Source: a virus
Lineage: Duplodnaviria; Caudoviricetes
IMG/VR virus record: IMGVR_UViG_3300021387_000661
Location: 128,001-192,000 of that record
Length of the DNA stretch: 64,000 bases
Strand: one strand, 5' to 3'
Shown one piece after another: positions 13,474-61,087 of the stretch (positions within the stretch are counted from its first letter, which is position 1; every line of letters starts with the position of its first letter). A model generated the notes under the pieces. It was given only the letters and a program-made list of their open reading frames with translations, made no database searches and had not been told where the DNA came from. The position numbers and the translations under genes are program-made.

Positions 13474-13566
13474 CATAAATACCTTGTATATTGAATTTTA
13501 AAATTACAGGTTATGTTACCTGCCTAAATTTGGTTTGAAAGAGTGGAGAATTTTCTTCACTTTTTT
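13474..13566 (+). ncRNA. putative ~80-nt late-promoter-driven non-coding transcript
   Basis: CATAAATA at 13474-81, hairpin CAGGT..ACCTG 13507-22, terminator 13538-66, no sizeable ORF. Confidence 0.35.
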
Positions 13567-13575
13567 GTTGTTTTA

Positions 13576-56528: not shown

Positions 56529-57428
56529 TTATGTTGTTAAAATGTACCAGGCACCAGACATATCTTTAAGTTCTTGGATTATGTTTTCTTTCTCTGTTGA
56601 ACCTTCATTGGCAATTGCCTCAACATTGACAGATATATTACCTGGCATCTGATATGAGAATGCACCAAGGATTCTACTCAACTGGACTTTACAGTCAGCA
56701 ATAACATATCTACGGAATAGGTCATCATTATACAAATCACAATCAGGAACTCTCACAAGTACATCAAGAATGACATCACTCTTTGGAAGTTCACCAAGGA
56801 ATCTCAAATTGTTTGTCAACCTGTTATATTTGAAGGAGATCATATTCTGGAAGATTTGTCTTGATATATCCAGGAATGCCTCTGTACAGATATAGTACAT
56901 GGTATTGTCAGCAGAGACTGCCATAGTCCTGTCATATACAGACTGATAGACCATCCTATGAAGACTTACATCACCGGAGTTCTTACCAAGGAGACCAGTG
57001 TTCCAACCACTTTCGCCGGACCACCCCCCCAGAGAATAAACACCAACTACAGAAATAACACCGTCTGGAAGAACATATGTCCCTCTTGTATGTCCAGTAT
57101 TGGGTTCTTTACCTTCTCCTTTCTTGAATTTTGCTGTTACCTTATTATCTCCTGGACCATCCATGGAATGAATACCCCTCTGGAATGAATGCTTTCTTAT
57201 TTCTGATTCAGGTATGGCTATAAACATTTCTTCAGACGCATCCTCATAACTTTTGTAGAACATTGTCTTGGCATTTTTAGTCAACTGGGCAATGGATTCA
57301 GCAGGGATGGTAAAGGGTATTGCACCATTCACAGACATTTCATTTTGAATACTCTCAACAAAGTCATTCAGGCACTCAACCTCATCTATATCAGAACAAT
57401 TAACTAATGTACTTACTTTTGATGCCAT
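56529..57428 (-). CDS. neck/head-completion protein (T4 gp13-like)
   Basis: YVLPDGVISV, FKYNRLTNNL, RRYVIA...MPGNISVN pattern; late promoter 57451-58 inside the upstream gene. Confidence 0.65.
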   Translation of the reverse strand: MASKVSTLVNCSDIDEVECLNDFVESIQNEMSVNGAIPFTIPAESIAQLTKNAKTMFYKSYEDASEEMFIAIPESEIRKHSFQRGIHSMDGPGDNKVTAKFKKGEGKEPNTGHTRGTYVLPDGVISVVGVYSLGGWSGESGWNTGLLGKNSGDVSLHRMVYQSVYDRTMAVSADNTMYYICTEAFLDISRQIFQNMISFKYNRLTNNLRFLGELPKSDVILDVLVRVPDCDLYNDDLFRRYVIADCKVQLSRILGAFSYQMPGNISVNVEAIANEGSTEKENIIQELKDMSGAWYILTT

Positions 57429-57430
57429 AG

Positions 57431-58396
57431 TTATAATTTACTTATATAAGTATTTATGATACTTTTACATTCATTAATGTCTGTTGTAAATACTTCCAAA
57501 TAATTTAATTTATTTTCTTTTGCAATAGTTCTTTTATTAACATCCCTGACTGTCCAATTATATATTGCTTCTGTGTAAAATTTTGTATTCTTATTTTCCC
57601 ACAGTTTAATTTTTTCTAAATCATCTGGATTGGATTTATTAAATGGATGCCTTCCATGTGTCCAGGATCCTTGTATTTCTATATATAATTTTAATTCTGG
57701 TATGTAAAAATCACAAGAAAATGGATATGAATTATCTTTATGTTGTCTTTCAACAGATGGGTATAATTCTTTCAACCAATTATAACAATCTGTTTCAATT
57801 TTTGATGTACCAAATGTATGATTTTTTCTTTTTGTTTCAAATTCATGTTGTTTCCTTTGTTCATTTATTTCAATAGAATATTCTTTCCACTTTTTTGTTT
57901 TTGCATAATTATTTACACCATATTTTTCTATACAAGTATCTGCTGCTTTATTTCTATTGTTATAATTTCCATTACCATATTTTAATTCTTTAGTTTGATA
58001 ACTATGTTCTTTATGTCTTTCAGATTGATTAACACATTTTGTACTACAATATTTTTTATATCCTTCCTTAAATGATTCCATAGTACATCTTTTCCCACAA
58101 ATTGGGCATATACCCAATCTTAATTCATAATCATTTTGAAGAAAATGCCATAATTTTTGACAAAATCTCCAAGTCTTTGATTCCTCTGGAAATGAAATAC
58201 CTTTATATTGTTGATATAATTCTGGAAAGAATTTCAAAAATCCACCATTTAGTTTGTTATTAGTATAAGATTCACAAACTAAATTACCACTTTTATCTTT
58301 ATTTAATTTAGTAAGAAAATAGAACACATCAGATTTATTTGTTCTATCAAAAGATTCAGGAAAACCATAGTCTTCCAAAGAATTAAACTTTTTCAT
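57431..58396 (-). CDS. free-standing endonuclease (Zn ribbon + Vsr/DUF559-like PD-(D/E)xK), homing-endonuclease-like
   Basis: CPICGK...YCSTKC, TCIEKYGVNNY, FSCDFYIPELKLYIEIQGSWTHG. Confidence 0.8.
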   Translation of the reverse strand: MKKFNSLEDYGFPESFDRTNKSDVFYFLTKLNKDKSGNLVCESYTNNKLNGGFLKFFPELYQQYKGISFPEESKTWRFCQKLWHFLQNDYELRLGICPICGKRCTMESFKEGYKKYCSTKCVNQSERHKEHSYQTKELKYGNGNYNNRNKAADTCIEKYGVNNYAKTKKWKEYSIEINEQRKQHEFETKRKNHTFGTSKIETDCYNWLKELYPSVERQHKDNSYPFSCDFYIPELKLYIEIQGSWTHGRHPFNKSNPDDLEKIKLWENKNTKFYTEAIYNWTVRDVNKRTIAKENKLNYLEVFTTDINECKSIINTYISKL

Positions 58397-58454
58397 AATT
58401 ATCGGTTAATTTTATATAGAAGGAGACTGCCAGATCTCCTATACTATATTTATG

Positions 58455-58552
58455 AAAAATGGGAAATGAAATCAATCATTTCCCAATAGAGTTTGACTTG
58501 AAACTGGCATTTACAAGTCATTGTGGAATAACCGATAAGACCACAGAACTCT
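58455..58552 (-). ncRNA. putative two-loop small RNA antisense to the endonuclease mRNA leader
   Basis: Late promoter 58558-65, three-way junction (closing stem plus two hairpins), intrinsic terminator 58455-87; loops complementary to 58399-408 and 58428-33. Confidence 0.65.
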
Positions 58553-58560
58553 TAATATAT

Positions 58561-61087
58561 TTATGATACTTTTTCCAATATAGGATTATCAACAACAGCA
58601 AGGAATGTGTCTATCAAATCCACAACAGACTTATTGGTAGGTTTTTTCTTTGGTTTGAGATATATCCTGGATCTAAGTCTTGATGTAGTAAGTATATAAT
58701 TATTACTCAACATCCTTTCCAAATTCACATATTTATCAAAAAGAGTTGGTGATGTTGCCATTGAAACAACACTGTTATCTTTTTTAGATATTTCTATTAT
58801 CAATGTCTTTATCCTACCACCAATGGATTCAATTGGTATGAATATCTCAATGATATCACTATCCGTTATTGATAGTCTTCCACCAATTTTTTCATTGATT
58901 TTCTTGCTCTTTGGTTGATAGTGTTCTGAAAGATATACAAAGAATTCTTCATAACCAAAATGGTCAATGTCATCCTCTTTCTTGATGTCAGAACCATTAC
59001 CTCTTTTTCTAATGTCACCCCATACAGATTCATCTATATTCTTTATTAGTATTGGTTTTTCTGCATTTGTAGATATGGTATCTATCACATCAAGAAGCAG
59101 TTTATTTGAAATAGTATTATCTTTTGATTTGATGTAACTTAAACCACTTGGATCTCTATATATTTTAAAATTATCTGTTAATTCTTTATAGAAACCTACA
59201 CATTCTTTCTCATTGGCAAACAAAATGATTTTATTTATATCGCCATCTGTATAATATGCAACAAGTCTATGAACATTATATCTATACATAAACATTGGTA
59301 ATGAAAAATATAGATAATTATTTTCTGTACTACTTTTTAATGGTAATACATGTACATTTGGATCTTGATGATATATTGTATATATATAATCAAACATATC
59401 ATCTCTATCAAGATGTTCAATATCATCCTCTTTTTTGACATCAGTTCCATTACCTCTTTTCCTAATGTCATTCCATACTGATTCATCTATATATGTCTTA
59501 AAATCTGGTATCATATCTTCTCAATTAATTTACATATTCTGCTATCCTTCACCCTTTCCAAAAGGAAATCAATCAGACTGATAAAAAATGTATTTGTCAC
59601 TTCACTTCCATCCTTTGGTTTAATCTTAATGTAATGTGATGATATTATATTACCTTGTTTGTTTATAACATCTTCAAGGGTAAAATGATATTTCAAAAAA
59701 TTATATAAATCTGGTGCCCAGTCTTTCAGAGCAGGACTTATAGATATATATGTTTCAGTATTTAAATGTTTAATACTTAAATATAATGTTTGTGGATTAT
59801 CCTTACCAGAATAATCCATTAAAACAGGAACACTTAATGTCACATCATTTACCCTGACCTGTTTTCTTTCAAAAAAAGCATTACCCTTTGCTGATTGTTT
59901 ATAATGAGTGTCTATATAATCATATAAACCATCAATATCCAACAAATCAATGTCATCCTCTTTCTTGATCTCAGAACCATTACCCCTTCTTCTAATGTCA
60001 TTCCAGATAGATTCTTTGACTATCCTTTCAATTGCTTTTGATGGACCAATTTGAGCATTATCTAAAATGAAATTAATTACTTCAATGAAGAATGAATTTG
60101 TTATTTTACTTCCATCCTTTGGAGATACAATATAATATATATGGTTTCTTCCTTTATCAGATTTCAGTGTAAATTTATCTTCTAATTTGAGTAATAAACC
60201 TTTCTGAAAACTATAAGGTAAAGTATAATTTATACACACCATTTGACCAAGATTAGCATATTCCCAATCCTTACCTGTTAATTTTTTTAAAGTGTTACTA
60301 TATTTTTTGGTATCAAAATACATTGTACAGTTATTATTCCCAGCAATAGGGACAGTAATTCTTCCATATTCTGGTGAGTTTTTTATTTCATATACATTCC
60401 AAGGTGATGGTAAAACTTTATAATAATTAATCAGATAGTCATACATTTCATCTCTATCAAAAGAATCAATGTCATCCTCTTTCTTGATGTCAGAACCATT
60501 ACCCCTTCTTCTAATGTCATTCCATATTGATTCACCTATGTATGTCTTAAAATCTGGTATCATTTCTTTTCAAGTATTTTTAATATTTTGTTGTTATTAT
60601 CTGTGGTGTTGTTCAAGATGAAATCAATAAATGCTTCACAAAATTTAGAAGTTATTCTACCATCCTTTGGTTTTATTTCAAAATCAATCCAATGATCCAT
60701 TCCATCAAATGTGGATATCTCTGGTGAATAAGTATCTTTAATTTTATCAAACAGTTGATTGATATCATCTTTAATGTGTGTCACAAACTTTCTTAATGAT
60801 TGTGTTGTATATCTATCTGGATCAATTGAAGCAAAAGTTATTTTATTTTTATATATTTCTACTGATGAATATGAATTTAACCCGATAACCTTGTAAATTG
60901 GTATATGGATATAATCATTTTTGAACTCAATATCATCCATACCCACAAAACCAACAAAATAATGTACACTTATAAAATTATAGATATCATCAAGTATATC
61001 TTCATTCTTGACATCAGTACCATTGCCTCTTTTCCTGATGTCATTCCATATTGATTCTCCTATATATGTCTTAAAATCTGGTATCAT
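58561..61087 (-). CDS. three tandem paralogous genes (60560-61087, 59511-60563, 58561-59514) holding five repeat units
   Basis: Each gene starts MIPDFKTYI(G/D)ES(I/V)WNDIR(K/R)RGNG; internal second copies in the two longer genes; shared PKDG...FIDFIL-like unit ends. Confidence 0.85.

Follow-up and report, generated by a model that had tools for sequence, protein, structure and literature searches.

Organization of the locus

The window analyzed here, a stretch of 64,000 nucleotides, corresponds to bases 128001-192000 of the 344,746-bp IMG/VR virus record IMGVR_UViG_3300021387_000661, which is estimated to be 94% complete and encodes a T4-type large terminase, a Rad50-like ATPase, a baseplate hub and a gp13-like neck gene product. 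On its minus strand, a 164-nt spacer between the genes for a 317-aa protein and a 321-aa predicted nuclease holds a putative two-loop small RNA with its own promoter and terminator, followed by the promoter and leader of the nuclease gene. A first-pass annotation had read this arrangement as a bipartite RNA repressor of a selfish nuclease; the coordinates it assigned to promoters, three-way junction, terminator and leader all agree with the sequence of the minus strand. Its description of the genome as CpG-poor is likewise borne out, with an observed/expected CpG ratio of 0.19 at a GC content of 34.7%. The elements of the spacer and the gene that it precedes are as follows.

58558-58565, minus strand: P1, CATAAATA, late-type promoter of the small RNA, overlapping the stop codon of the upstream gene
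58455-58552, minus strand: predicted small RNA of about 95-98 nt (closing stem, hairpin 1, hairpin 2, terminator), from the fold and a covariance model
58552-58547 / 58493-58488, minus strand: closing stem AGAGTT / AACTCT, from the sequence
58522-58545, minus strand: hairpin 1, with the 14-nt loop TCTTATCGGTTATT at 58540-58527
58538-58529, minus strand: specificity seed TTATCGGTTA in the loop of hairpin 1, co-varying with the leader site
58494-58520, minus strand: hairpin 2, presenting TGCCAG at 58509-58504
58455-58485, minus strand: intrinsic terminator with a 10-bp stem (58485-58460), a 6-nt loop and a T-run (58459-58455)
58447-58454, minus strand: P2, CATAAATA, promoter of the nuclease mRNA, invariant in all loci
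58421-58440, minus strand: 5′-terminal leader hairpin with loop TCTGGCAG and the kissing site CTGGCA at 58433-58428
58399-58408, minus strand: leader target TAACCGATAA, ending 2 nt before the AUG and pairing with loop 1
58396-58394, minus strand: ATG start codon of the nuclease gene, from the sequence
57431-58396, minus strand: nuclease gene, 321 aa, with DUF7487, a four-Cys element and a C-terminal Vsr-like nuclease domain

The 103-nt stretch that covers the small RNA has a minimum free energy (MFE) of -32.5 kcal/mol (z = -5.1), a stability reached by none of 200 shuffled sequences, and its predicted fold matches the three-way junction described earlier. The terminator was also called by an independent terminator scan (2 sites vs. 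0.2 expected). With the spacing known from T4, transcription from P1 would begin at 58552, where the closing stem also starts, and that from P2 at 58441, one base ahead of the leader hairpin.

Both loops had been said to be perfectly complementary to sites in the leader, and the match is indeed exact: 10 bp between loop 1 and the leader (TTATCGGTTA / TAACCGATAA) and 6 bp between loop 2 and the loop of the leader hairpin (TGCCAG / CTGGCA), the two contacts being in nested antiparallel order. The 10-mer was found only once in the 344,746-bp genome, and when loop 1 was shuffled the observed duplex energy was reached in 1 of 1000 cases. Each of the four interacting sites is predicted to be unpaired and to cost at most 1.5 kcal/mol to open, and the contact energies at these accessible sites are -12 and -8 kcal/mol. 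About 120 nt and the terminator separate the loops from the target, and the local hairpins persist in the MFE fold. A scan of positions 58000-59000 against Rfam, with E-values up to 10, returned noise only and no match to RF01695.

The RNA scaffold is conserved and covaries in homologous loci

Homologues were collected by protein searches with the nuclease and gp13 followed by contig look-ups; ENA and Logan assemblies, of gut, pig and rumen-type metagenomes, gave all true relatives. Ten loci (ours, L013, L180, L014, L018, L173, L163, L170, L017 and L016) share the order P1, hairpin 1, hairpin 2, terminator, P2, leader hairpin, target and start codon, with nucleases that in the other nine are from 83% down to about 48% identical to ours. 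A covariance model of the RNA built from four loci, R1, recovered the non-seed loci L163 (E 1e-10) and L017 (E 5e-4). In the genome studied here R1 finds one copy only, and it matches only loci filled with the nuclease cassette and none of the cassette-free ones. In the alignment fitted to the model, 100% of the cells in 31 pairs are standard and 15 of the 31 pairs show double-sided changes, a result equalled by none of 500 shuffles. Seven of the 10 pairs of the terminator stem have changed on both sides across the loci; the intrinsic terminator claimed in the first-pass annotation is conserved with covariation in addition to being called by the scan. The stem of the leader hairpin also covaries, with AGGAGA/TCTCCT here, AGACAA/TTGTCT in L016 and AAGGT/ACCTT in L017.

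The R1 model does not reach L016. On its own, this sequence folds into the same two hairpins and terminator, and its membership was assigned by synteny, its own fold and its matched loops. The nuclease gene is broken in three relatives, being split in L163 (2501-3485) and L169 (1483-2494) and without its start codon in L170 (near 1484), while the RNA scaffold is intact in these loci (52-114 bits).

Other collections yielded no further members. A search of GenBank phage DNA left the RNA unmatched and gave matches only inside the nuclease open reading frame (ORF), at about 70% identity to genes that are repeated in Prevotella Lak megaphages. No relatives emerged when IMG/VR was scanned with protein patterns of the nuclease and of the upstream gene, and scaffold pattern scans of IMG/VR and the JGI metagenomes gave only matches that an nhmmer check attributed to chance. 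Inverted-repeat pattern matches on four IMG/VR contigs turned out to be an unrelated ATCGGTTAC iteron array. Iterons of this kind are present in both orientations in the unrelated contigs L009 (1255-1389) and L012 (1875-2009), which were hit solely through the shared 10-mer; they probably represent an origin or operator region.

Loops and leader sites change together

The ten loci fall into six classes by the sequence of loop 1 and of the leader site that faces it.

Ours, L013 and L180: loop 1 seed TTATCGGTTA, leader site TAACCGATAA
L014: loop 1 seed TTCGGTTGT, leader site ACAACCGAA
L018 and L173: loop 1 seed AACTGTTATT, leader site AATAACAGTT
L163, with L170 similar: loop 1 seed TAAACTATTATT, leader site AATAATAGTTTA
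L017: loop 1 seed GGTTATTTT, leader site AAAATAACC
L016: loop 1 seed AAATGGTTATTTT, the core of a 17-bp duplex, leader site AAAATAACCATTT

The mean duplex energy was -11.4 kcal/mol for same-class vs. -4.6 kcal/mol for other-class combinations. The cognate assignment was the single best of all 720 permutations of the six class representatives, and a further test gave p = 0.0002. Double-sided changes were found at at least five positions of the loop 1-leader helix, and two independent A-to-G changes opposite U, in L013 and L180, yield G.U pairs; these fit pairing of RNA and not a repeat in DNA. The helix is 9-17 bp long, contains single-base bulges and varies in register, and it always ends 0-6 nt before the start codon. 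The second pair, TGCCAG in loop 2 and CTGGCA in the leader loop, is constant in all loci except L016, in which a C-G to U-A double change (TGTCAGA / TCTGACA) has kept and extended the pairing. Compensatory changes between loops and leader, by which the first-pass annotation had suggested its idea could be checked, are thus present at both sites across the ten loci.

The comparison of L014 with L018 shows how local these changes are. Over the upstream gene, RNA scaffold, terminator, P2 and leader hairpin, these two loci share 98-100% identity, interrupted only at loop 1 and at its target, two small islands with matched differences; the nuclease bodies drop to 55-65% identity. As a separate observation, L014 and L018 retain about 88% identity in the region of nuclease codons 7-13, in contrast to the divergence of the remaining ORF. 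In the window these codons contain a hairpin (58359-58376, minus strand; GGAAGAC / GTTTTCC) with a T-rich tail, which may be an RNA element or merely a conserved N-terminal motif.

On this comparative evidence we consider it established that the two loop-leader RNA-RNA pairings are under selection, and masking of the translation start by the pairing is well supported. Chance complementarity in AT-rich DNA is excluded by the shuffles and permutations. In the window, an ORF of 23 codons with its ATG at 58521 runs through hairpin 2 and the terminator, which could point to an encoded small protein; its frame is missing or different in L016, L017 and L163, and the changes in the stems are compensatory rather than synonymous. 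The probability left for a small protein or a coincidental match is close to negligible.

The matched sites could also be inverted operators in DNA, bound by a protein such as an autorepressing nuclease and changing with the specificity of that protein. There is precedent for this, as the late promoter of I-TevI is overlapped by an operator, similar to the homing site, to which I-TevI itself binds (PMC2988022), and here the site pairs do change along with the nuclease allele. Yet, the sites always lie in loops or in the open leader of RNA hairpins whose stems covary, the helix differs among loci in register and in length (9-17 bp) and has single-base bulges, and the two independent G.U pairs would be mismatches in DNA. 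Moreover, the second pair of sites is loop-to-loop, and neither site overlaps a promoter. We consider the operator explanation very improbable.

The RNA and the nuclease mRNA are predicted to share one class of promoter

The motif CATAAATA occurs in 85 copies in the genome, 70 of which (82%) are intergenic although only 8.7% of the genome is. Sixty-six of the 85 copies lie no more than 120 nt upstream of a start codon on the same strand, with a mode of 15-36 nt, and the motif is also found upstream of tRNA genes. Single-base variants of it are without such positional bias. Because the intergenic bias and the orientation toward starts are absent from the point variants, we accepted CATAAATA as a predicted promoter signal of the T4 late type, which has an TATAAATA-like octamer; the late promoters named in the first-pass annotation thus behave as genuine signals in the motif statistics. 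P1 is kept in all ten loci, across three different upstream contexts. One of these is L016, in which the upstream neighbor is divergent, so read-through from an upstream gene is impossible there, and P1 is still present.

Eight copies of CATAAATA are located only 4-5 nt before a start codon, and by T4 spacing these would give leaderless or near-leaderless late mRNAs. At window positions 13474-13570 on the plus strand (genome 141474), a copy of CATAAATA precedes a hairpin and a strong terminator, and no ORF begins within 180 nt, which makes this another candidate for a small RNA driven by a late promoter. A similar promoter-hairpin-terminator unit is situated at genome position 202148 (minus strand), outside the window.

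The RNA gene is part of a presence/absence cassette

Three further features of the minus strand define the surroundings of the spacer and the nuclease gene.

57451-57458, minus strand: P3, CATAAATA, promoter of gp13, inside the 3′ end of the nuclease ORF
56529-57428, minus strand: T4 gp13-like neck gene, by PHROG, with Pfam PF26809 in related loci
58561-59514, minus strand: upstream 317-aa gene, left flank of the insertion site

The gp13-like gene adjoins the cassette in all loci. The RNA gene, terminator, P2 and nuclease gene together form a single insertion/deletion of about 1.1 kb upstream of it. An identical gp13 protein is encoded with the cassette in L180 and without it in L181 and L184-189, and the right flank is 99% identical. 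Where the cassette is missing, gp13 lies directly behind the upstream gene (L181, L184-189 and also L177) or behind an unrelated 150-aa ORF (L175, L176, L178 and L179). Empty sites have the 10-mer ATCATAAATA and 22-25 nt ahead of gp13, whereas filled sites carry it at both ends of the insert, the left copy being P1 and the right copy P3, in the last codons of the nuclease gene. As the RNA gene lies between the flanking ATCATAAATA copies and within the 1.1-kb indel, it is part of the mobile unit.

Comparison with the empty sites makes P1 the counterpart of the resident gp13 promoter. As judged from these sequences, the putative small RNA is driven by the former gp13 promoter, and the cassette brings a replacement promoter for gp13. 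The distance from P3 to the gp13 ATG is 22 nt, within the genome-wide mode of 15-36 nt. The promoter of a downstream gene is embedded likewise in the seg and mob genes of T4 (PMC2988022).

Some of the neighboring genes vary as well. The 317-aa upstream gene (58561-59514, minus strand) consists of two tandem units, each starting with an ...ESVW.DIRKRGNG... motif, while its relatives at the same place are single units of 155-172 aa. In L016, TnpB / IS605 OrfB and NT5C genes (804-2003) stand in place of the usual upstream neighbor in a 337.6-kb relative. Just downstream of gp13, a 639-aa gene that combines DUF7487 with a Mom-like part is found in L014 (2498-4417) and in L169-L172 (3474-5393), with a late promoter inside a terminator-like hairpin; the window has a 200-aa ORF at that place. 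The 639-aa gene is another presence/absence nuclease cassette on the other side of gp13.

The cassette encodes a predicted Vsr-fold endonuclease

The nuclease matched DUF7487 (weakly) and the PHROG 'homing endonuclease' families, and five paralogues are encoded in the genome. A profile search of the PDB sequences found no significant relative. The AlphaFold2 (AF2) model has a predicted local distance difference test (pLDDT) score of 91, and its C-terminal domain (residues 195-321) aligned with Vsr (1cw0) at Z 10.1 and a root-mean-square deviation (rmsd) of 2.9 Å over 111 residues, and with I-Bth0305I (3r3p) at Z 9.4 and an rmsd of 2.8 Å over 93 residues. Foldseek alone gave E-values above 0.05, and the Vsr fold became clear only after re-alignment. 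Residues D229, E240, H247 and D259 and the four cysteines are invariant in 28 sequences.

The likeness to I-Bth0305I, with its EDxHD residues, and to Vsr thus covers the C-terminal fold and the acidic and His residues that are invariant here; like I-Bth0305I, the gene is phage-borne, multi-copy and variable in presence. The differences are a sequence identity of 16-18%, N-terminal two thirds (DUF7487, four-Cys) without a solved relative, and a free-standing gene that is not borne by an intron or intein. We found no paper on DUF7487 in the literature. Because the Vsr-like fold and the invariant residues coincide with the indel polymorphism, a free-standing homing endonuclease is the best reading of the protein, whose cleavage activity is a prediction. 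The selfish nuclease of the first-pass annotation is thus plausible as a Vsr-fold nuclease on a presence/absence cassette.

The RNA might instead be a cofactor or guide of the nuclease, or of another protein, addressing DNA or RNA at the end of the element. It does travel with the nuclease gene, and the TnpB gene close to the cassette in L016 is a mere reminder that RNA-guided nucleases exist in these phages. However, the sole match of the seed in 345 kb is the leader of the gene itself, the target always abuts the start codon, and loci with broken nuclease genes retain the RNA. The protein, moreover, is a predicted Vsr-fold enzyme with a zinc-binding element, and to our knowledge such enzymes do not use guides. 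The first-pass annotation had offered an RNA cofactor addressing DNA as its second choice; nothing in the present data favors it, and we find a cofactor role barely credible.

The leaders of two paralogues, L005 and L002 (genome 69521-69629 and 84959-85083, outside the window), have a covarying hairpin with the loop UCUGGUAAA, vs. UCUGGCAG here. Their start codons are embedded in TATTTATG, which pairs with the CATAAATA of the promoter. No intergenic complement to their UCUGGUAAA leader loops exists in the genome.

Proposed action of the RNA in trans and in cis

Across the genome, Shine-Dalgarno motifs are not enriched at start codons (9.5% vs. 11.4% in the background), and start codons are preceded by A/U-rich leaders. 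The host therefore probably belongs to the Bacteroidota. In our model, P1 would yield an RNA of about 95 nt that ends at the intrinsic terminator and presents two single-stranded loops on a three-way junction. P2 would start the nuclease mRNA and P3, within the end of the nuclease ORF, would serve gp13. Loop 2 (UGCCAG) would kiss the loop of the 5′-terminal hairpin of the mRNA, and loop 1 would form a helix of 9-17 bp next to the start codon that blocks binding of the 30S subunit. Such a helix is expected to prevent initiation because the mRNA is devoid of a Shine-Dalgarno sequence and needs an open A/U-rich leader. Translation of the nuclease would be held low while gp13 is still produced from P3, and limiting the amount of enzyme is the most likely purpose of the pairing. 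Identical contacts could form in cis on transcripts that read through the terminator. We infer that the RNA accumulates, acts in trans and represses, and we put the probability that it works mainly as a free trans-acting antisense RNA on P2 transcripts, and in cis as well, at roughly 0.6.

Four features favor action in trans. P1 persists in three upstream contexts, in one of which no upstream gene runs in the same direction; a strong, covarying terminator stands between loops and target; and short seeds on stable loops together with a kissing contact are a hallmark of fast bimolecular antisense pairing. Furthermore, P1 and P2 belong to one class, so that a mask acting in cis loses its temporal rationale.

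A mask confined to cis is the alternative that deserves most attention. The loops would then act only on transcripts reading through from P1 or from upstream, the short RNA would be a by-product, and the P2 mRNA would be translated. Homing-endonuclease genes of T-even phages use the same logic, with a late promoter between mask and start (PMC2988022), and two sites nested in antiparallel order are suited to folding within one molecule. In the paralogues, and likewise in L019, which is more distant, the CATAAATA of the promoter simply pairs in cis with TATTTATG at the start codon, and as P1 is the resident gp13 promoter, the cassette may need shielding from it. On the other hand, masking P1 transcripts while P2 of the same class fires gains little, the covarying terminator removes most of the transcripts open to masking, and stable loops and a kissing contact are unnecessary in cis. 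If the terminated RNA is stable, its accessible -12 and -8 kcal/mol sites would pair with the P2 mRNA anyway. Taken together, we regard the cis-only explanation as doubtful, while giving it some weight. A different cis pairing, of the U-tract/CAUAA with UUAUGAAAAA, was considered as the main mechanism and rejected, since it is not kept in L016 or L017.

Several points tell against the trans-acting RNA that we favor. All features except the conservation of P1 and of the terminator are equally compatible with a cis-only mask. The shared class of P1 and P2 leaves no obvious temporal logic, and a repressor co-expressed 1:1 with its target is an unusual design. A similar UCUGG leader loop is present in paralogues without a small RNA, so the shared loop may have another role or bind something else. 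As for the evidence of pairing, that of loop 2 is backed by a single covariation event (L016), there are only about 6 independent specificity classes, and the alignment behind the stem counts had been fitted to the model.

The pair of loop 1 and leader might further act as a programmable address that sorts nuclease cassettes into 'immunity groups', comparable to P1/P7 heteroimmunity or plasmid incompatibility. Each RNA would then silence only its own nuclease allele, a resident cassette would control, or fail to control, an incoming one in mixed infections, and diversifying selection would drive the matched islands in otherwise identical DNA. We offer this idea, drawn by analogy, as a speculation that is more likely wrong than right by a good measure.

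Discussion

The translation-start masks of T-even homing-endonuclease genes are the closest published systems for the class of gene, and the c4 RNA of phages P1 and P7 is closest for the logic of the RNA. I-TevI, I-TevII, I-TevIII, segB and the mobE gene of Aeh1 have leaders that sequester the ribosome-binding site and a nested late promoter (PMC2988022). Common to these genes and the one studied here are a selfish nuclease in a T4-like phage, an upstream segment complementary to the translation start, a late promoter between the masking segment and the start (P2 here) and the likely purpose of low nuclease translation. The T-even mask, however, is one contiguous local hairpin that works in cis only, on early or middle read-through RNA, whereas here a separate folded domain makes two contacts, a terminator lies between this domain and its target, and the upstream promoter shares its late-type core with P2 and would not belong to an earlier class.

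The c4 RNA is a same-strand RNA encoded just upstream of its target operon, which it contacts by two short pairings, one of them over the translation start of the first gene. It is cut from a longer precursor and controls an antirepressor operon in temperate phages, and natural c4 variants with matched changes in RNA and target underlie the heteroimmunity of P1 and P7. The element described here resembles c4 as a same-strand upstream RNA with two short leader pairings, including one at the translation start, and with matched natural variants. It differs from c4 in having no match to RF01695, in its own predicted terminator as opposed to processing from a precursor, and in its target, a nuclease in a lytic-type jumbo phage as opposed to an antirepressor operon. 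The c4 antisense RNA goes back to Citron and Schuster (1990), cited in PMC8198154 and PMC2864571.

Like kissing regulators, the RNA combines nucleation between loops with a further contact at the start of translation; its seeds are short and sit on stable stem-loops, and extended complementarity is not needed. OxyS-fhlA, CopA-CopT and RNA I-RNA II are such two-site regulators, and IstR-1/tisB is an adjacent type I antitoxin system. These regulators and type I antitoxins act on host or plasmid genes, while the target here is a phage nuclease of 321 aa. In type I systems the toxin is a small membrane peptide, and the antitoxin is as a rule encoded on the opposite strand or divergently. The 'antitoxin-like' label of the first-pass annotation therefore holds as an analogy and fails as a type I toxin system, the target being a 321-aa nuclease.

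One non-coding RNA tied to a homing-endonuclease gene in a T4-like phage is CfrI of cyanophage S-PM2, which links psbA and the homing endonuclease F-CphI (Millard et al. 2010, summarized in PMC12197685). CfrI is transcribed from the opposite strand as a true antisense RNA, a few hundred nt long, in contrast to the same-strand two-loop RNA aimed at a leader here. A literature search found no paper on this RNA or on any same-strand small RNA aimed at the leader of a homing endonuclease. As a new RNA family, the element brings together two ideas that were already known.

The boundaries of the mobile element and its promoter arrangement are now defined in abundant jumbo phages of the gut and rumen. 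The six natural classes of seed and target on a near-constant scaffold form a ready-made test of orthogonality, and they could give a compact, chaperone-independent set of translational repressors for gut Bacteroidota. The host group, probably the Bacteroidota, makes use of neither Shine-Dalgarno pairing nor Hfq. If the proposed action is true, the RNA would be among the very few phage-encoded small RNAs with a clear target. Published models of the control of phage homing endonucleases comprise cis hairpins, promoter choice and autorepression by protein; a cassette-borne RNA with a co-evolving seed would, if confirmed, add a layer of antisense RNA to this control.

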